From the IMG/VR virus record IMGVR_UViG_3300033153_007861, positions 1-52,753 of that record: a stretch of DNA of 52,753 bases. One strand, 5' to 3'. The notes beneath the pieces were generated by a model. That model did no database searches, was not told the origin of the DNA, and was given only the letters and a program-made list of their open reading frames with translations. The position numbers were made by a program, and so were the translations under genes. Shown in pieces: positions 1,970-14,197 of the stretch. The stretch's first letter is position 1. Each line of letters starts with the position of its first letter. The DNA is from a virus. Lineage: Duplodnaviria > Caudoviricetes.

Positions 1970-4483
1970 CTATAATAAAGTTCCAATTCCATTATTATAA
2001 ACATTACTTCTCTCATTTGAATCTAAATTATAATTAAAAACTCTAAAGTCTTCCAGATATAATCCTGTAGTTCCATCGGAATATATATTAAAAAACTGAC
2101 TTGTATTATCACCTTTAATGTTAAGTCGCCCTATTTGTGAATCAACAACAGTATTGTCCACATATAGCCTTATAAATTCCTGTGTACTATCTATTGATAA
2201 GATTATATGTTTCCATGACCCCATAGGTGTAGCATGTATTACATTTGTAGTTGTATTACTATTAGAAATCTCACAATTCAATTCATTGCCTTTAAACTGT
2301 ATTGCCATATAGTCTAGTGAACTTGTTTTAAATAAAATGTTAATTTTAGTAGTACTAAGTGCAGAATAATAGTTCATCCAAAAAGCAACAGTAATATTGT
2401 TAGAATTTATACTAAATTGTTCAGAAGCTATTAATGACGATGAACTTCCGTATGGCAGATAATAACTATTTCTTATCTTACCAGTTTGATTAATAGTAGT
2501 GCCTGTGTTTGTTAAGTTTTGCTTCTCTGTGCCAAAATTATTAACAACTACTCCTGTCTCCTCTTGTAATTTGTAGTGTAAAATAGGTATGTTTTGAGTT
2601 ATATACTCTTGATATGATTCAAGCTCAATAACTTCTTTGTGTTTAGTCATTTTAGTGATTATACCATAACTAACACCATCTTTAATTAAATTATTGCCTA
2701 TTCTAATATCTTGATTCTTATTCTTGATTTTAACTTTGTAATATATCACATTATTAAATTTATCGTAATACCGTTGCAAAACATAATCGTTTAATAAAAA
2801 ATAATTATCAGGACTTAATAAATTCAACTTGTAATCCTTATTATCAAGCTCCCTTAGATTTAAAGTTATATCCGAAACATCCACATTGCCCAATCCTGCA
2901 TTAGTGATAATATTAATATCTGAATTGAAGAAATTAGATTTTAAACCACTTTGCTTCAGTATATCTGATAAGTAATTGAATATGTTGTAATTCTCCTCAG
3001 TATTATATAATAGATTATCAGAATATGACGAAGACTCCCACCTAGAAGTATATAAATCAGCAGGAACAAGCCCTATAACATCCACGATTATTATTCCTGT
3101 ATAATCAAATATTGTACCATTGCTAATATTTAACCTACCACCACTGTAATTTCTAGTACTAAGAAAGTAATTAGTATTAATATAATCAAATGAATATAAT
3201 CCAAGAGTTATCGTGTCTCCATAATCAGATTTTTGATAACTAGATGTAAAATCTAAAATATTCCACTTATAACCTAATGCTCCATGAATACCGCTTCTTT
3301 GTAATTCAAGCATTATTGTTTCAGTATTGGCACCTAAAAATGTACCAACTGGAATACAACAACCAATAAATTTGTTTCCACCCGAGCTAACTACTGAAAA
3401 ATGCGGGAATATGAATATTTGTTTAGGACTACCTATGACATCATGTATATCAACAGTTCCTACCATATCGTAAGCTCCAAATCCGTTAATTTGTATTAAA
3501 TGAACGAATCTATAGCGTTCTGATGGAGTTTCAGGATCAGTATAATCTCTCTCTGCAACAACTGCTATAGCACCTATATGCCTTTCATCTAAACTAGCTT
3601 GATTTAACGCATTACTAACTTGTGTCGATGTTGGAGAAACTGGCAATTCATCATAGGTATAAACCGTGTCAGCAATTTCATTATACAGGAAATTACTACT
3701 AATCACATCACAAACAACAAACCTATCATCCAATTGACCACTAAGGTTGTTCATGTTTAACCTACTTTGCAAGTCTATCTCTTGCCATTTACTATAACCT
3801 ATAGCTATATCTTTGTTTTGGATAGTAATATTATGCGGAAATCCTTTTGCTTCCAATAACTCATTAGCCCTATGTTCAATAAATGAAAGTACACTACGGC
3901 TATTTGCAGTAGATTGATTTTCCCTAGCTACCTCATTAACATACATACCATTATCACGCAACTTTATTTGACCATAATAAGTAAAATCCATGTTTTCATA
4001 ATCTACTGCGGTATTGAAGTATGTTTTTGCTTTATCTTTTTCAGGTTGTGACAAATTATCATATACATTGTCGGTCACATATTGATACTGATCATTACCT
4101 ACATCTTTAAACTTATAACCCATATTTAAATTTTTAGCAAAATAAAATATACTAACAAATGTTATTGTCATTGTTTTTGTTTTGTAATCGTATGATACTA
4201 AGTTGGAATTTTGCTCAACTGGTATATACATAGAAAAACTACTACTACTAATGAAATCTAAGTTAAGATCACACTGTATAAGCGTCTTGCGATTAACTAT
4301 AGCTGTTTTAATGTAATCCAATTCATCAGTATTAATCATAAAATTTAATGTTAAGTTATCTATTGTTCCGATAAACTTCACGGTATCATTACCAGTAGTG
4401 AATGATATATTATTATCCTTAACTTTATCAGTCAAATCATATTCTACACCATCTATATTTATTTTAATATAATTAGACATCAC
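1970..4483 (-). CDS. Tail tip/baseplate protein with C-terminal LamG (concanavalin A-like) domain
   Basis: Follows the tape measure gene. C-terminus ILHYKLQEETG...ITVAFW...WKHIIL...LYVD...LEDFRVFNYNL is a LamG-like jellyroll pattern. Confidence 0.7.
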   Translation of the reverse strand: MMSNYIKINIDGVEYDLTDKVKDNNISFTTGNDTVKFIGTIDNLTLNFMINTDELDYIKTAIVNRKTLIQCDLNLDFISSSSFSMYIPVEQNSNLVSYDYKTKTMTITFVSIFYFAKNLNMGYKFKDVGNDQYQYVTDNVYDNLSQPEKDKAKTYFNTAVDYENMDFTYYGQIKLRDNGMYVNEVARENQSTANSRSVLSFIEHRANELLEAKGFPHNITIQNKDIAIGYSKWQEIDLQSRLNMNNLSGQLDDRFVVCDVISSNFLYNEIADTVYTYDELPVSPTSTQVSNALNQASLDERHIGAIAVVAERDYTDPETPSERYRFVHLIQINGFGAYDMVGTVDIHDVIGSPKQIFIFPHFSVVSSGGNKFIGCCIPVGTFLGANTETIMLELQRSGIHGALGYKWNILDFTSSYQKSDYGDTITLGLYSFDYINTNYFLSTRNYSGGRLNISNGTIFDYTGIIIVDVIGLVPADLYTSRWESSSYSDNLLYNTEENYNIFNYLSDILKQSGLKSNFFNSDINIITNAGLGNVDVSDITLNLRELDNKDYKLNLLSPDNYFLLNDYVLQRYYDKFNNVIYYKVKIKNKNQDIRIGNNLIKDGVSYGIITKMTKHKEVIELESYQEYITQNIPILHYKLQEETGVVVNNFGTEKQNLTNTGTTINQTGKIRNSYYLPYGSSSSLIASEQFSINSNNITVAFWMNYYSALSTTKINILFKTSSLDYMAIQFKGNELNCEISNSNTTTNVIHATPMGSWKHIILSIDSTQEFIRLYVDNTVVDSQIGRLNIKGDNTSQFFNIYSDGTTGLYLEDFRVFNYNLDSNERSNVYNNGIGTLL

Positions 4484-7400
4484 TAAACTCCAATGTACTT
4501 AATTGTTGATTATATTTACTAGTAGATGGCTCTAAATTAATTGCCATTACATCAGTATTCATAGTCATTGTTCCGCCTATAACCACTGGTGATTTCTCTT
4601 TATTTACCGCAATCAATACTTTATTCATGACATTCACTAACTCGCCTGTTTGGAAAATATTAGGTTGAACATATCCACCATTAGCATAACTTGTTGTGTT
4701 TAAGTTTTTCGGGATTGTTATTGAACCTATTGATCCTGCTTGCATTAGATCTTTAAGTTTAGCACCTTTTTTTGTTAATTCAAGAAGCTTTAACCAATCT
4801 CCAACTTGCCCCTTAACACTTTCTTGGGGAGCTACTATTTCACCACTATGAACAATACCTGCTGGTTGATACTTGCCTCCATCACCAGTATATCCACCTA
4901 CTGCAAAACTTGGTTTAGTCGCCTGTATTTGAGCAACATTAGCCATTCCCTTAGCAACAACACTGGCCATTAATACATAATTTAAAGGTGGTACTGTAGA
5001 AGCAAGAGCTTTGTTTGCCGCTGAAAATGTACTTATAATAGCTTCGGCAGTAGAAAGAGCCTTCCAAATTCCAAATTGTTTTTTACCCATAGATTTAGCT
5101 ACATCTGCAAAATTACCTAATGCTGTGATAGAGGCATTAATAGCTTGATCTTCTAACTTTATAATAGCTATTCTATCATTAGCAGCTTTCTCTTTAATCG
5201 CCGTTAATGCAGATTCGTATTGTTCGCCTAGTAATAGTTTTTGCTCATTAGCTAACTCTATAGCATCTATCTCTCTTTGATCAATTTCCATCGTGGCTTC
5301 TATTCCAGCTAGTGTAGCAGGTACTCTCTCATCCACACCACCAATGCCAACTCTTTTTAGCAATATGTCTTTAGTTCTCAACTCTCGTATTTTAATATTT
5401 TCAATTTCTTCATCAGTATGCTTTTTTAACAAATTTAACTTAGCTTGATAATATTGCTGGTCATTGGCTAATTTTCTCTTATTTGCCTCAACCTCAGTAA
5501 TTTCCTCTCTGTCTGCAGCTTGACTAATAACTACTTGTGCATCAGCCTGATATTTTTTAAGCAAATTAAGATCATCTACATAACCTTTAGTTTTCTCTAT
5601 ATATTGCTTGACAATTAACTCTTTTGTTTTACCAAGTATTTCACCGATCAATAAAGCATTTGAATTTTTCTGTATCTTCATTTCTTCCTGAAGAGTTACT
5701 CTTCTTAATTGTGCTAATCTCGTTAAATTCTCTTGCTCTTTCTTTCGTGCATCTCTTAAATACTTATTACGAATACTACTTTTGAGTTGATTAGTTTTCG
5801 CTAATATCATTACATCAGTTTTACTATTATGTTTTAAATCTTCTTTCCAACTTGCTATAAACTTTTCAGCTTCCTTGAGTTCATTTTGCATTGCATTAGT
5901 ATCTAAAAACACGGACAATCTTTCTAATTCAGAAACCTTACCTGATGCTTGCGACAACTCCTTATTAAACTCTTTTGTGAATTCTAACATAGATCTAAAA
6001 CTATCACTTGATCGCTTAGAAACCAGTCCAAGCTCGTCCATTTGTGCATTAATAGATTTTTGTGCATTAACACCAGATCTTAATGATAAATTTATTTCAT
6101 CTTGTATTATTTTTTGTTGCTCAAGGTTTTTTTTATGATTAGTAAGTGCATATTGTATATTACCATGCTGCCGCATACTCATTTCTCCAGCAAGAAACAA
6201 TTCCTTCATTTGATTTCTCAAAGCATCTACATTTTCTATGTTTGTCAATTTAGACACATCTATGTCTGGAGTTTCGCCCTTAAAAATGTCAAATCTTCCT
6301 GTATCAAATGCTTTTTTTACATCAACAACTAATTTGCTAAAGGATTTTTCGTCTAACAATTTTAACTCAAACTCTTTACCTAATACAATTAATTCTTTAA
6401 GTTTTTGAACCTTCATGTCCAAACCAACCTGCTCGACCTTGTTAAGTTTTTCAGTATCAGTTATTAGTTCGTCAAGATTCATCATTCCAAATGCTTCAGG
6501 AGACAATTTTTTTAGTTTTTCAAATATATCCGTTATACCTTCTGTTTTAACTCCGCCACTTTGCTGTATGAGTTTTTTGAGAACAGAAGTATATATCTTA
6601 ATAGACTCAATATTCTTATCTATATCTTTAATTTCCAAATTTACTACTTTTTCTCGAACAACACTTCTCATTCTGTCAAGTATCTTGTTTAGAAGCTCAC
6701 TCTTTTCAATAACTTTACCTATTCCAGCAAACCAATCACTAGTGAAATTAACTATTTGTTTCATCTTACCTAATGTAGTTTCAAGTTCCGTAGCTGCTAA
6801 ATCACCTACTTGTCCTTCTACAATATCAAGAATCATCTCTTGAGCTTTCAATAATTCATTCATCTCTGCATATTGTTTAATCTGTTTAGTTTGCTCTTTC
6901 GTGAATGATACACCAGCTCTATTCATTGCACCTAGGTTTCGTACTGGATCCTGCAATACTTTCCCAAGTTGTTTAGATGAGTTTTGTAAGCCACCAAATA
7001 CTGCGTCTAAATCTAATGCTAGCTGATTAGCCCTAACAAATACCGTATCTAATCCTTTTTCTCTTGCAGATTCAGACATTTCATGCTTAAGTTCCATAAA
7101 GGTTAATAATATGTTTGTTGACTGCTTAAGTATCTCTTCATCAGCCATAATTGTATTATCTTGAAGTTTCTTTACCAATACAGCTATATCAGAGGCGTTT
7201 ATATTAGCATACCTACCTGTAGCCTTAATTAACTCTTGGGACTTCCTGAGTGCCACATTTTGTTCATTATATATACTTAATAATTTATATGCACCTGCTA
7301 TCATTGGCAAAAAAACAAATACCATTTCCATCAATGCCCTACGAACCATTCTTATGGCTTTAATTGCACCTTGTGTTGCATTTTGTACTTTTTTCCAAGC

Positions 7401-7619
7401 TGGAACTTGTTTGTTTATAGTATTAATCATATTATTTATTTCTTGTTCTATTTTTTTTGCATTAGCTACAGCTTTTTGAGCTGCCTCATTGCTTATTATA
7501 TCAGCCCTAGCAGTTTTCTCAATCTTCTTATTTAATTTATCTATCTTTTGAGTTAGTTTTTCTAATTTGTCTATTGCTTTTTTAGCGCTAATATCAACAC
7601 CAATTTTAATATCTGCCAT
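4473..7619 (-). CDS. Tape measure protein
   Basis: 1048-aa helical protein after the tail chaperones; LGKVLQDPVRNLGAMNRAGVSFT and FAVGGYTGDGGKYQPAGIVHSGE motifs. Confidence 0.9.
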   Translation of the reverse strand: MADIKIGVDISAKKAIDKLEKLTQKIDKLNKKIEKTARADIISNEAAQKAVANAKKIEQEINNMINTINKQVPAWKKVQNATQGAIKAIRMVRRALMEMVFVFLPMIAGAYKLLSIYNEQNVALRKSQELIKATGRYANINASDIAVLVKKLQDNTIMADEEILKQSTNILLTFMELKHEMSESAREKGLDTVFVRANQLALDLDAVFGGLQNSSKQLGKVLQDPVRNLGAMNRAGVSFTKEQTKQIKQYAEMNELLKAQEMILDIVEGQVGDLAATELETTLGKMKQIVNFTSDWFAGIGKVIEKSELLNKILDRMRSVVREKVVNLEIKDIDKNIESIKIYTSVLKKLIQQSGGVKTEGITDIFEKLKKLSPEAFGMMNLDELITDTEKLNKVEQVGLDMKVQKLKELIVLGKEFELKLLDEKSFSKLVVDVKKAFDTGRFDIFKGETPDIDVSKLTNIENVDALRNQMKELFLAGEMSMRQHGNIQYALTNHKKNLEQQKIIQDEINLSLRSGVNAQKSINAQMDELGLVSKRSSDSFRSMLEFTKEFNKELSQASGKVSELERLSVFLDTNAMQNELKEAEKFIASWKEDLKHNSKTDVMILAKTNQLKSSIRNKYLRDARKKEQENLTRLAQLRRVTLQEEMKIQKNSNALLIGEILGKTKELIVKQYIEKTKGYVDDLNLLKKYQADAQVVISQAADREEITEVEANKRKLANDQQYYQAKLNLLKKHTDEEIENIKIRELRTKDILLKRVGIGGVDERVPATLAGIEATMEIDQREIDAIELANEQKLLLGEQYESALTAIKEKAANDRIAIIKLEDQAINASITALGNFADVAKSMGKKQFGIWKALSTAEAIISTFSAANKALASTVPPLNYVLMASVVAKGMANVAQIQATKPSFAVGGYTGDGGKYQPAGIVHSGEIVAPQESVKGQVGDWLKLLELTKKGAKLKDLMQAGSIGSITIPKNLNTTSYANGGYVQPNIFQTGELVNVMNKVLIAVNKEKSPVVIGGTMTMNTDVMAINLEPSTSKYNQQLSTLEFSDV

Positions 7620-7633
7620 ACAACCCCCTTTTG

Positions 7634-7975
7634 TTAATTATTTAACACATTATTACAATCTCTATATATAGATAATCTAAAAGCCTCCATAAAATCCATT
7701 TCAAGCAAAGCATTATAGTGTAAAGGGTTGCCATTACTCCACATAATTAAACTATTATCAATAAAACTTTTTAAATTATCAATATTGAACTTTAATTCCG
7801 TACCAAGAAGACTACTGATACTATCCCTTGCATCACTCTTGATACGGTTTATTTTTTGTGTCAACTTATCATTAGATCCTAATTGTTTGTACTGCCGTCC
7901 AATCCGCTCAGTAATTCCGTTAAGACTGTTCCGTATTTTGGATATTTCGATAATGTCTTCTTGTATTTTTTTTTT
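7634..7975 (-). CDS. -1 frame extension of the tail assembly chaperone (gpGT-like)
   Basis: The -1 frame is open from the A10 run (7966-7975) to TAA at 7634 (KKKIQEDIIEISKIRNSLNG...); includes track ORF 7634..7864. Confidence 0.75.
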   Translation of the reverse strand, partial: KKKIQEDIIEISKIRNSLNGITERIGRQYKQLGSNDKLTQKINRIKSDARDSISSLLGTELKFNIDNLKSFIDNSLIMWSNGNPLHYNALLEMDFMEAFRLSIYRDCNNVLNN

Positions 7976-8214
7976 AATTCCTCTATCAATTCCAAGATCT
8001 TACCAAAATCACCATCAGAACCTTCTTTATTATCAATGTCACTTGCCGTCACAGCATTTTTATTTCTATCAGTTAATATTAACGCAAGTAATTCACTCTC
8101 ATTCTTACAAACCCCATTATCGTCCCATAAACCAGCAAGTATTCTAAGCTCTTTGAATTTCAAGGATGATTTTACTAAAAAAGGTTCTCCGAATAATGTA
8201 ATATCATTTTTCAT
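7879..8214 (-). CDS. Tail assembly chaperone (gpG-like)
   Basis: Between tail tube and tape measure genes; contains an A AAA AAA slippery site. Confidence 0.75.
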   Translation of the reverse strand: MKNDITLFGEPFLVKSSLKFKELRILAGLWDDNGVCKNESELLALILTDRNKNAVTASDIDNKEGSDGDFGKILELIEELKKKYKKTLSKYPKYGTVLTELLSGLDGSTNN

Positions 8215-8226
8215 AATTATATTCCT

Positions 8227-8904
8227 TTATCTATTATTTATAATACCGCCGTTTGTTTGTATTAAAGCTATATCAGATTCTGATAACATTCTATTTTTAT
8301 AATATCCAAATTCCTGTACTTTCATATTATAAGCACCAAGCAATTCGTACCCACCTAACGAAATATGACCATCAAACGAACTTAAATCTGTACCACCAAC
8401 ATCAGTAGTTTGTTTCACGCCATCTATCCAAACTTCCAATATCGATGAATCCCAACGACATATAACTATATACCACTCCCCAACATTCATAGGATTTGTG
8501 TAAGTATATTCTCGTTGAGGATATACAGAACTACGAAAAATAACCGCTGCATTAGAAATGCCAATCAAGCTACTTGGTACTTCGGCTTCTAACCTAGATA
8601 TAAAAAGTTGTGCATCTACATCATCCCTTTTTACAACTAAAACAAATGATCCCTCATTTATTGTTTCTGTAACAACATCTGCTAATATTGTATTATTACC
8701 ACTAGACAATTGATAAGCTCTATTATTATTGCCTTTATTATCAGGAATTAACACAGGATTTGTTCCTGCATCCCCAAAACTACCATCATTACCGTTCCCA
8801 CTTTCATCATAAACGACCGTATCGCTTGTTTCAGTGAATGCAAACAGTTGATACAGTCCATCTTGAAGTTGTGTTGGAATAGGGTCAATTGTCCCCGCAG
8901 TAAC
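8227..8904 (-). CDS. LamG-domain extension in frame with the tail tube gene beyond one TGA (probable readthrough product)
   Basis: Open from immediately after TGA 8905-8907: VTAGTIDPIPTQLQDGLYQLFAFTETSDTVVYDESGNGNDG... to 8227; track ORF 8227..8754 is its 3' part. Confidence 0.7.
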   Translation of the reverse strand, partial: VTAGTIDPIPTQLQDGLYQLFAFTETSDTVVYDESGNGNDGSFGDAGTNPVLIPDNKGNNNRAYQLSSGNNTILADVVTETINEGSFVLVVKRDDVDAQLFISRLEAEVPSSLIGISNAAVIFRSSVYPQREYTYTNPMNVGEWYIVICRWDSSILEVWIDGVKQTTDVGGTDLSSFDGHISLGGYELLGAYNMKVQEFGYYKNRMLSESDIALIQTNGGIINNR

Positions 8905-9480
8905 TCAGGTCAAATCAATACGCTCGTAAGGATTCGATTTACCCGGCACTTTACGACCAGTGATTGTTAGATCTTCTGCCATAAGTAGAACCTTACCACC
9001 TATGTTAGATGTATAACCACCCATATCACCTTTATACATGAAGTATAAATCAGAAGGATCACTCTCGTTACTATCCTCGTACCTAATCATAATGTAAGGA
9101 AAGTTTTCTTCCGCCATTACTTCTAAAGCCTTGCTTAACTTGCTTGTTTTCATTTCAATAAAGTTAATGCCACTAAAAGTAGACGACTTGGTCTTTATAG
9201 ATGCCACCACTTCACTAAATCCACTATATTTAGGTTCTTTGTCAACATTATATCCAAATTGAAATGGATTCTCATCTGTATTACCTAGACAAGAATACGA
9301 ATCACTTGGTAAGACGAATTGTTTCGTGGTTGTATTATAATAATCAGCTATATCATAACTTGGTACACCAGCATTATATACTTGTTCACAAACATATACA
9401 ATACCAGCACCTTTTGTTGTACTTGTGGCAGTGATGTCCCTAGTATTATTTAGAGCTGCTACTTCCGCAGGTAATGCCAT
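8905..9480 (-). CDS. Major tail (tube) protein
   Basis: 191 aa, upstream of the chaperones, GAGGT SD; paralogous to the C-terminal part of 9501..10787. Confidence 0.7.
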   Translation of the reverse strand: MALPAEVAALNNTRDITATSTTKGAGIVYVCEQVYNAGVPSYDIADYYNTTTKQFVLPSDSYSCLGNTDENPFQFGYNVDKEPKYSGFSEVVASIKTKSSTFSGINFIEMKTSKLSKALEVMAEENFPYIMIRYEDSNESDPSDLYFMYKGDMGGYTSNIGGKVLLMAEDLTITGRKVPGKSNPYERIDLT

Positions 9481-9500: not shown

Positions 9501-10787
9501 TTATTCATATTTAGTTCCATTGTGATCTAATCTTGTAATAACTCTTTTGTAGTCAGGATGCTTCGCACCATTAATTGTAATGCCTTCAACACCTAATAAC
9601 ACTTTATCTCCAACATTACTTGTAATACTACCACTCATAGAACCACTTGGTATGATATATATTCTATCAGGAATAGCACTTGTATCACTATCTTTGTATG
9701 TTGTAATATAAAATGTATATTGATTATCAGTGTCAAGCAAGGAAACAATCGCATCCTCTAAGATAGTCGTCTTGTTTTCAATAAAAGTAAACCCTGAAAT
9801 ATCTACGGTTTTTTCGGTATAAGATTGTTCTATTTCATCCATATTGTTCAAGTAATCTGTTTGCTCTCCACCCTCTGCAATATTTATATCACCATCCATT
9901 AAAATGTTGCCAAAGCATTTTGCATCAGTTATAACCCCAGTAGAATCATTTATAATGCTTGTTATGTTTTGATCAGCACTTAGTAAATCAGATACATATA
10001 TTAATCCAGCACCTTTATATGTGAAATCAGTACCAGTCGCTCTAGTAATACCCAAATCAAGCATAAATACTTCTTTAGGTGTCCATTCAGAATATATTCT
10101 AGTAGCATAATTAGAGAATGTTTCAGTAAATGCACTTGTCTTATGCTTTAATTCAAAATAATCTAATGTTGCTGAATAAGGCTCTCCCAATGCTCCGCCA
10201 CCGACATATTGTGTAGTCCCTGTTCCAGTAATAGTAAGAGCTACAGGCCCGTCAAATGCACCACCGTTTAAAATCACTCCAACATCTCCATCATATAAAA
10301 GCTCAAATCCAACACTACAATTATCTTTATATACATAACCATCAACATACGATTTAGCAACACCGTCATATATAAAAATTTTCACTTGTCCTTTTGGATC
10401 AGCATTCCATGTAGCTAACTCACCAGCAGAACTGATTTGCGAACCATCTATATGAGCTTCAAATCCAATTGAGCAATTATATAACAAGCTCGCACCATCA
10501 AATAAAAATTGATCTACACTGTGATCGTCAACTGTATTAATAGTCCAATTCAAAGCTAATCTAGTGAAATCACCTGCGGTATAACTTTTTACAAATGCTA
10601 AACTTGTATTTGCATCTGCACCCCAACTAGCATTACCCTCGTATCCTGCAAATGCTTCATCATTTTTGTTTGATTTAAAACTCTTGCCAGCTTCATCAGT
10701 AATACTTACTGTCTCTCCGTCACTAATTAAATTACCAATTCCGTATTTAGGACTTATAACAACACTTGAGTCCGTAAAAACTCCCAT
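9501..10787 (-). CDS. Tail-tube paralogue with ~240-aa N-terminal accessory domain
   Basis: C-terminal ~185 aa share KGAG(L/I)(I/V)YV, C(F/L)GN, FIE.KT and TSN(V/I)G.KVLL with 8905..9480. Confidence 0.6.
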   Translation of the reverse strand: MGVFTDSSVVISPKYGIGNLISDGETVSITDEAGKSFKSNKNDEAFAGYEGNASWGADANTSLAFVKSYTAGDFTRLALNWTINTVDDHSVDQFLFDGASLLYNCSIGFEAHIDGSQISSAGELATWNADPKGQVKIFIYDGVAKSYVDGYVYKDNCSVGFELLYDGDVGVILNGGAFDGPVALTITGTGTTQYVGGGALGEPYSATLDYFELKHKTSAFTETFSNYATRIYSEWTPKEVFMLDLGITRATGTDFTYKGAGLIYVSDLLSADQNITSIINDSTGVITDAKCFGNILMDGDINIAEGGEQTDYLNNMDEIEQSYTEKTVDISGFTFIENKTTILEDAIVSLLDTDNQYTFYITTYKDSDTSAIPDRIYIIPSGSMSGSITSNVGDKVLLGVEGITINGAKHPDYKRVITRLDHNGTKYE

Positions 10788-13934: not shown

Positions 13935-14009
13935 TGGTTGAGGTATCAGGATTCGAACCTGAAAATACTGGAATCAAAGTCCAGTGCCTTGCCGTTTGGC
14001 GATACCTCA
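13935..14009 (-). tRNA. tRNA-Gln(TTG)
   Basis: TGAGGTA acceptor stem, CTGGA-CTTTGAT-TCCAG anticodon arm, GGTTCGAATCC T-arm, encoded CCA. Confidence 0.95.
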
Positions 14010-14023
14010 ATTTATATATAAAA

Positions 14024-14100
14024 TGGAGACGATACCCAGAATCGAACTGGGAAAAATAGATTTTGCAGATCCACGCCTTTACCAATTTAGCCATATCGCC
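14024..14100 (-). tRNA. tRNA-Cys(GCA)
   Basis: GGCGATA acceptor stem, anticodon loop CTGCAAA, GTTCGAT T-loop, encoded CCA. Confidence 0.93.
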
Positions 14101-14111
14101 GTATATAAAAA

Positions 14112-14197
14112 TGGCGGAGAGTATAGGACTCGAACCTATAAGAGTGATTAGCTCGGTAGTTTTCAAGACTACTGACTTACCATTAGCCTAACTCTCC
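14112..14197 (-). tRNA. tRNA-Ser(TGA)
   Basis: GGAGAG acceptor stem, GTAGT-CTTGAAA-ACTAC anticodon arm, long variable arm, GCCA end. Confidence 0.93.

Follow-up and report, generated by a model that had tools for sequence, protein, structure and literature searches.

Why should a phage gene end at a TGA codon when the same frame, immediately behind that codon, goes on to encode what looks like a complete lectin domain? The question is raised by an uncultured tailed phage, the sequence of which comes from a single metagenomic assembly. The window analysed here is its entire IMG/VR virus record (IMGVR_UViG_3300033153_007861; 52,753 bp, estimated to be 93% complete, about 32% G+C). On the minus strand, which carries all the features located below, a 191-codon open reading frame (ORF; 8908..9480), likely that of the major tail (tube) protein, ends with ...GKSNPYERIDLT (...ERIDLT) and is closed by an in-frame TGA (8905..8907, in the context ACC-TGA-GTT-ACT) placed directly after the codon for Thr191. 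The frame then reopens for 225 sense codons (8904..8230), beginning VTAGTIDPIPTQLQDGLYQLFAFTETSDTVVYDESGNGNDG, and reaches a TAA at 8229..8227, an arrangement that a first-pass annotation of the letters had pointed out and that we could verify on this strand. As an answer we propose, with about an even chance of being right, that the UGA is the site of a programmed, or at least functional, readthrough, most likely as tryptophan, and that it gives a minor tube subunit of some 417 residues ending with a LamG domain.

The process would unfold as follows. Normal termination at the UGA would yield the 191-residue protein (about 21 kDa). Some ribosomes, a minority, would decode the UGA by means of a near-cognate tRNA, most likely tRNA-Trp, and would read on through a short linker into the LamG/ConA-like domain, making a 417-residue subunit of about 46 kDa. 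This subunit would co-assemble sub-stoichiometrically into the tail tube, and a probable carbohydrate-binding module would in this way be displayed along the tail. We infer all of this, from the occurrence of readthrough and its selection to the nature of the inserted residue, the incorporation into the tail and the binding of a sugar.

The association of this stop with this extension exceeds chance, because no other ORF ending with TGA has anything similar and because homology to LamG domains begins about ten residues after the TGA. In a crude set of non-overlapping ORFs drawn from the window (n = 83), TAA is the stop of 54, TAG of 18 and TGA of 11. Behind ten of the latter the in-frame extension does not exceed 21 codons, and the 191-codon ORF, with its 225 codons, is the sole exception. 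Five other ORFs have extensions of at least 100 codons, and in all five the canonical start of the next gene lies no more than five codons from the stop; for many genes of the window a second stop follows within 0-5 codons. The phage uses the standard genetic code. It shares an in-frame TGA with the stop-recoded phages, where TGA or TAG is reassigned throughout the genome, but reassignment is not the case here: we rejected it in view of the ten short extensions and of the lack of a suppressor tRNA. The latter was itself rejected as an explanation, since the three phage tRNA genes detected by ARAGORN, Gln(ttg), Cys(gca) and Ser(tga), are all ordinary, with no suppressor anticodon among them.

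As judged from sequence comparison, the extension is made of a linker followed by a complete LamG-type domain. It begins at the very codon behind the stop, with no spacer. The linker codons (VTAGTIDPIPTQL; 8866..8904, boundary approximate) align with a linker, GLVRPAEPVQPIPPQL, in the relative P0003, and the predicted LamG/ConA-like lectin domain occupies 8230..8865, just ahead of the TAA. Three lines of evidence lead to this delineation. Firstly, the read-through product, with TGA read as W (P0001), was used as the query of an exhaustive HMMER protein search (E <=1e-3), which retrieved 42 proteins: 38 match the LamG half only, three the tube half only (P0002 and the paralogues P0005 and P0008) and one, P0003, both halves. 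In 20 of the 38 LamG-only matches the best stretch begins at query residues 188-223, hence upstream of residue 243, which is encoded by the first canonical start codon of the extension. Secondly, in an alignment of 12 sequences, the best conserved block, G-L-V-x-Y/W-x-F ... D-E-S-G-N-G-N-D-G, corresponds to residues 14-40 after the TGA. Thirdly, the profile of these 12 sequences matches 82 sequences of the PDB at E <=0.01, LamG/ConA-like lectin domains, headed by 4qvs_A (E 4.2e-16, profile positions 25-229 of 254) and by the arabinanase module 5hon_A (E 5.4e-16), with pentraxins and pappalysin further down. The domain named in the first-pass annotation is thus borne out by profile homology to solved structures, at E 4e-16. 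The match to the Pfam family Laminin_G_3 (PF13385) reaches 20.1 bits, below the gathering cut-off of 27.6, and the relatives also score below threshold (22.5 bits for P0003, 25.7 for P0004). The fusion was modelled poorly by AlphaFold (mean predicted local distance difference test score, pLDDT, of 44.7), the LamG part of the model consisting mostly of strands, with blocks at 50-82.

How would ribosomes reach this domain? In Escherichia coli reporters, TGA was the most error-prone of the stop codons, a G at position +4 raised readthrough while a T lowered it, and nearly always it was tryptophan that stood in place of TGA (PMC11126739). By this reference, which may not be the host of the phage, the context ACC-TGA-G has the favourable G at +4. 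The phage tRNA-Cys(GCA), encoded at 14024..14100 between tRNA-Gln(ttg) and tRNA-Ser(tga), had been put forward as a near-cognate contributor; the idea found no support, the tRNA being an ordinary one and tryptophan being what replaces TGA in the E. coli study (PMC11126739).

The evidence that speaks for function comes from a relative that has the tube protein and lacks the module. The tube protein is 94% identical in P0002/L001, L001 being a 16-kb IMG/VR contig. There, Thr191 is again the last residue encoded, ahead of a tandem TAG-TAA, and the start of the chaperone gene lies 28 nucleotides further on; no LamG module is found behind the tube gene, nor elsewhere in the 16-kb record. Homology between the window and L001 stops at Thr191 and picks up again at the chaperone start. 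The two phages are not very close, their synonymous divergence (dS) being 0.63 in the tube gene, 0.59 in that of the capsid protein and 0.79 in that of the chaperone. That both end the tube protein after Thr191 suggests that the stop predates their separation: the coincidence is automatic if the ancestor had a stop there, and otherwise L001 must by accident have suffered its deletion at the very place where the window underwent a point mutation. Now, 4.5% of the single substitutions in the module would create a stop. If the stop were old, an untranslated module of 675 nucleotides would have accumulated about 0.3 substitutions per site, and some nine stops would be expected, against none present. 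An old stop together with an absence of decay would mean that selection acts on the module and hence that it is translated, and, as it is devoid of a start of its own (see below), readthrough would be the simplest route. The tandem TAG-TAA of the module-less L001, as against TGA, the leakiest of the stop codons, with no back-up stop for 225 codons in the window, is consistent with this proposal. The first-pass annotation had looked to relatives for conservation of the in-frame stop: a stop at the same codon does exist in L001, but with no extension behind it, while P0003 has a sense codon there.

Several points weigh against readthrough from a tube gene, and a first group of them concerns the identity of the 191-residue protein. 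Its designation as the tail tube subunit is most likely correct, and its one solid basis is gene order, the gene being placed directly upstream of the G/GT chaperone pair and of the tape measure gene. The position directly before G/GT is, in siphophages, that of the major tail protein gene, as in lambda with gpG, gpGT and gpV (PMC5009743). Gene order therefore fits the label that the first-pass annotation had given to the protein; sequence families do not, as no tail-tube family in Pfam or PHROGs matches it, and nothing in the window matches PF25595 at E <=10. A profile of its six-member family gave nothing meaningful against the PDB. Neighbours in ESM-Atlas features include Phage_TTP_16 (0.93), which serves as a lead only and did not recur when the N-terminal half of P0003 was used, and an AlphaFold model built with six sequences has a mean pLDDT of 33.1, which makes it unusable. 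A second group concerns the stop itself. The TGA at 8905..8907 is that of the one metagenomic assembly; stop and intact module occur together in no second genome; the junction codon is a sense codon in P0003, alone among the relatives in having the extension; and a separate contig of 3325 bp has on record exactly the 417-residue product, with Trp where the stop is. It stems either from a TGG allele, in which case the TGA of the window would be a nonsense variant, or from a gene call made with genetic code 4 on a short contig of low G+C. The RNA behind the stop displays no stimulatory fold (z -0.59, with 49 of 200 shuffled sequences folding equally well), and a stimulatory hairpin was accordingly rejected. 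Finally, the argument from the shared stop takes for granted a loss of the module in L001, as opposed to a recent gain in the window.

This leads us to the alternative that best withstands scrutiny, which we see as possible, if rather doubtful: the locus would be a broken, or mis-assembled, version of a constitutive fusion of the P0003 type, the TGA being a recent nonsense mutation, a minority variant or an error in the consensus. The module would then either not be made in this phage, a situation tolerated since the bare tube works as it does in L001, or be made on every subunit. P0003 (425 residues, on a contig of 49.8 kb) is indeed encoded by one uninterrupted ORF, which covers residues 3-416 of the read-through product, with 175 of 424 positions identical (42%, E 4e-98). 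At the junction, ERYVLEGLVRPAEPVQPIPPQLEG of P0003 is aligned opposite ERIDLT*VT--AGTIDPIPTQLQDG, with a glycine facing the TGA. The fused architecture is thus a natural one, in which the stop of the window sits in the linker, and P0003 makes the fusion product plausible as a protein. A single substitution separates TGA from TGG, GGA, CGA, AGA, TGT, TGC, TCA and TTA; the recorded product with W at the stop position is what a sense allele would give; the tube of L001 works with no LamG domain; an intact downstream frame is to be expected if the change was recent; and the record is a metagenome assembly. On the other side, a stop after exactly the same residue in L001 would have to be a coincidence, and the split products (191 and 175 residues) are each recorded on two contigs, possibly one scaffold entered twice. 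Substitution errors in an assembled consensus are, furthermore, uncommon.

Alternatively, the LamG domain might be translated as a separate gene, from a start within the extension and perhaps by termination-reinitiation, which we regard as unlikely. The first canonical in-frame start is a GTG, codon 51 after the TGA (8752..8754), chosen by gene callers as the start of an annotated ORF of 175 residues; among the first 50 codons there is no in-frame ATG, GTG or TTG. Between codons 1 and 55 the candidate starts are ATT (codons 6, 9 and 53), CTG (17 and 20) and this GTG (51, position 8754). An AGGA motif lies 9 nucleotides upstream of the GTG, but the Shine-Dalgarno (SD) duplex predicted there with a generic anti-SD sequence is a weak one of -4.3 kcal/mol. 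Over 59 genes of the window the median is -8.1 kcal/mol, with a stronger signal in 47 and an equally weak or weaker one in 12; 17% of 2000 random positions reach -4.0 kcal/mol. The ATT codons 6 and 9 sit behind a GGGG run, with duplexes of -4.5 and -5.7 kcal/mol. The first-pass annotation had stated that neither a start nor an SD sequence precedes the GTG, which was right for the start and slightly overstated for the SD sequence. It had also held that the GTG truncates the domain, and this stands: the DESGNGNDG motif and the first, conserved strands of the domain lie upstream of it and would be lost from a protein of 175 residues. A start at one of the ATT or CTG codons nearer to the stop would belong to kinds that are rare in bacteria. 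A free LamG protein would, besides, have no evident attachment to the virion, and in the homologues P0003 and P0004 the LamG domain is fused. Another kind of recoding at the site itself is very unlikely: matching threonine codons on either side of the stop (ACC-UGA-GUU-ACU) would let peptidyl-tRNA-Thr hop in frame from ACC to ACU, with a product that differs from that of readthrough only by two fewer residues, but according to a review no natural in-frame case is known (PMC5009743) and a threonine codon within three codons is fairly frequent by chance, while insertion of selenocysteine was rejected, the RNA behind the UGA having no significant hairpin to serve as a selenocysteine insertion sequence (SECIS) element.

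If the UGA is read through, it is of interest to ask which known systems come close. Tube proteins are extended by programmed frameshifting in SPP1 (gp17.1*), in Listeria phages and in lactococcal phages of the 936 group (TpeX), and TpeX carries carbohydrate-binding modules that bind host cells (PMC5009743; PMC6669499). The likeness is that recoding, where the tube domain ends, equips some of the major tail subunits with an adhesin or carbohydrate-binding domain at their C-terminus, so that the tail is partly decorated. The differences are that gp17.1* and TpeX are reached by a +1 or -1 frameshift into another frame, whereas the extension here lies behind a UGA in the frame of the tube itself, so that no slippery site is needed, and that their domains are Ig/FN3-like whereas ours is LamG/ConA-like. 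No sequence relationship to these tail proteins was found. The phage thus works like the group with frameshifted extensions and is not a member of it, its extension being in the same frame. In mechanistic terms the nearest case would be the A1 protein of phage Q-beta, where the UGA at the end of a structural gene is read as tryptophan, giving a minor subunit extended at its C-terminus. A leaky stop similarly extends a structural subunit in the CP-RTD protein of luteoviruses (PMC9553062). These are capsid proteins of RNA viruses, whereas we are dealing with a tail protein of a tailed double-stranded DNA phage. The same order, a tube domain and then an exposed binding domain, is met in P0003, in lambda gpV with its C-terminal Ig-like domain and in the decorated MTP of phage p2 (PMC6669499), but there every subunit is decorated, while here a stop intervenes. 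A full-text search of open-access papers and preprints brought up no paper that describes, for a tail protein of a tailed phage, the readthrough of a stop codon.

The LamG module appears to be portable. Together with its linker, recognizable by the motif P-E-L-E-G-K-I-Y-Q-L-F, it recurs in P0004 (316 residues, on a contig of 1343 bp) after an unrelated N-terminus of 93 residues, from which we gather that it probably moves between structural proteins as a cassette. According to the review cited above, non-homologous recombination brings mobile domains to a place in frame or out of frame, selection operating afterwards (PMC5009743); arrival in frame, yet downstream of a leaky stop, would be a third possible outcome for a module. 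A history that would account for the family, and to which we give somewhat less than an even chance, is that the UGA is an old, selected site, that the ancestor shared with L001 already made a minor tube-LamG subunit, that L001 deleted the module and tightened its stop, and that P0003 fixed the fusion. The endpoints of a deletion in L001 left no trace, its AT-rich spacer aligning only to chance sites within the module. A wider exploration added few witnesses. In the search for DNA of relatives, megablast and tblastn gave no match among GenBank phages; IMG/VR scans with the LamG module, P0003 and P0004 gave no loci, and those with alignments of the fusion and of the paralogue gave only the L001 contig and three distant LamG loci; two metagenome scans and a search of IMG/VR for the junction pattern returned nothing. 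A scan of genome contigs gave 25 loci, each matching the LamG half.

Should readthrough be real, a tail decoration known from programmed frameshifting would have been reached by another route. If, moreover, the site is an old and selected one, this would be the first structural decoration of a tailed double-stranded DNA phage obtained by stop-codon readthrough instead of frameshifting, and because rates of readthrough follow the physiology of the host, the phage could in that case tune the density of lectin on its tail. There is also a lesson for annotation, as pipelines turn a gene of this kind into two, a short tube gene and a truncated 'hypothetical protein', which is what happened here. 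The family provides a small natural experiment on how the stoichiometry of decoration evolves, with three states: L001 lacks the module, the window has it behind a stop and P0003 has it fused.

The surroundings of the gene are those of a head and tail module. In the direction of reading come the terminase, the portal, a minor head protein, a Neck1-type connector, three tRNAs, the prohead protease, a probable capsid protein of 318 residues, a protein of 428 residues, the 191-codon ORF with its extension, the chaperone pair and the tape measure protein. The chaperone genes have the classic G/GT layout: a G-like ORF of 111 codons (7879..8214) contains an A10 slippery run (7966..7975) in its frame, and the -1 frame is open from this run through the T-like part, an ORF of 76 codons (7634..7864); the A10 run is also kept in L001. 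The tRNA trio (13935-14197, minus strand) lies inside the head module, with connector genes on one side and the prohead protease on the other.

The 428-residue protein (9501..10787), the homologues of which are P0005 (430 residues) and P0008, is a paralogue of the tube protein: by BLASTP, the 191-residue protein is 31% identical to its residues 237-421 (E 4e-14). Ahead of this C-terminal tube-like copy stands an N-terminal domain of 236 residues, for which kinship with the LamG module was considered and rejected (best BLASTP E of 3.6). The phage therefore has two tube-like paralogues, one extended at its N-terminus and the other potentially at its C-terminus, and the pair is kept in L001. The tape measure protein (1048 residues; 4473..7619) was recognized by PHROG tape-measure families (best E 7e-24). 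When it is compared by eye with its counterpart in L001 (1055 residues; 5199-8366), the ends look conserved and the middle very different, which suggests mosaic exchange within the tail module.

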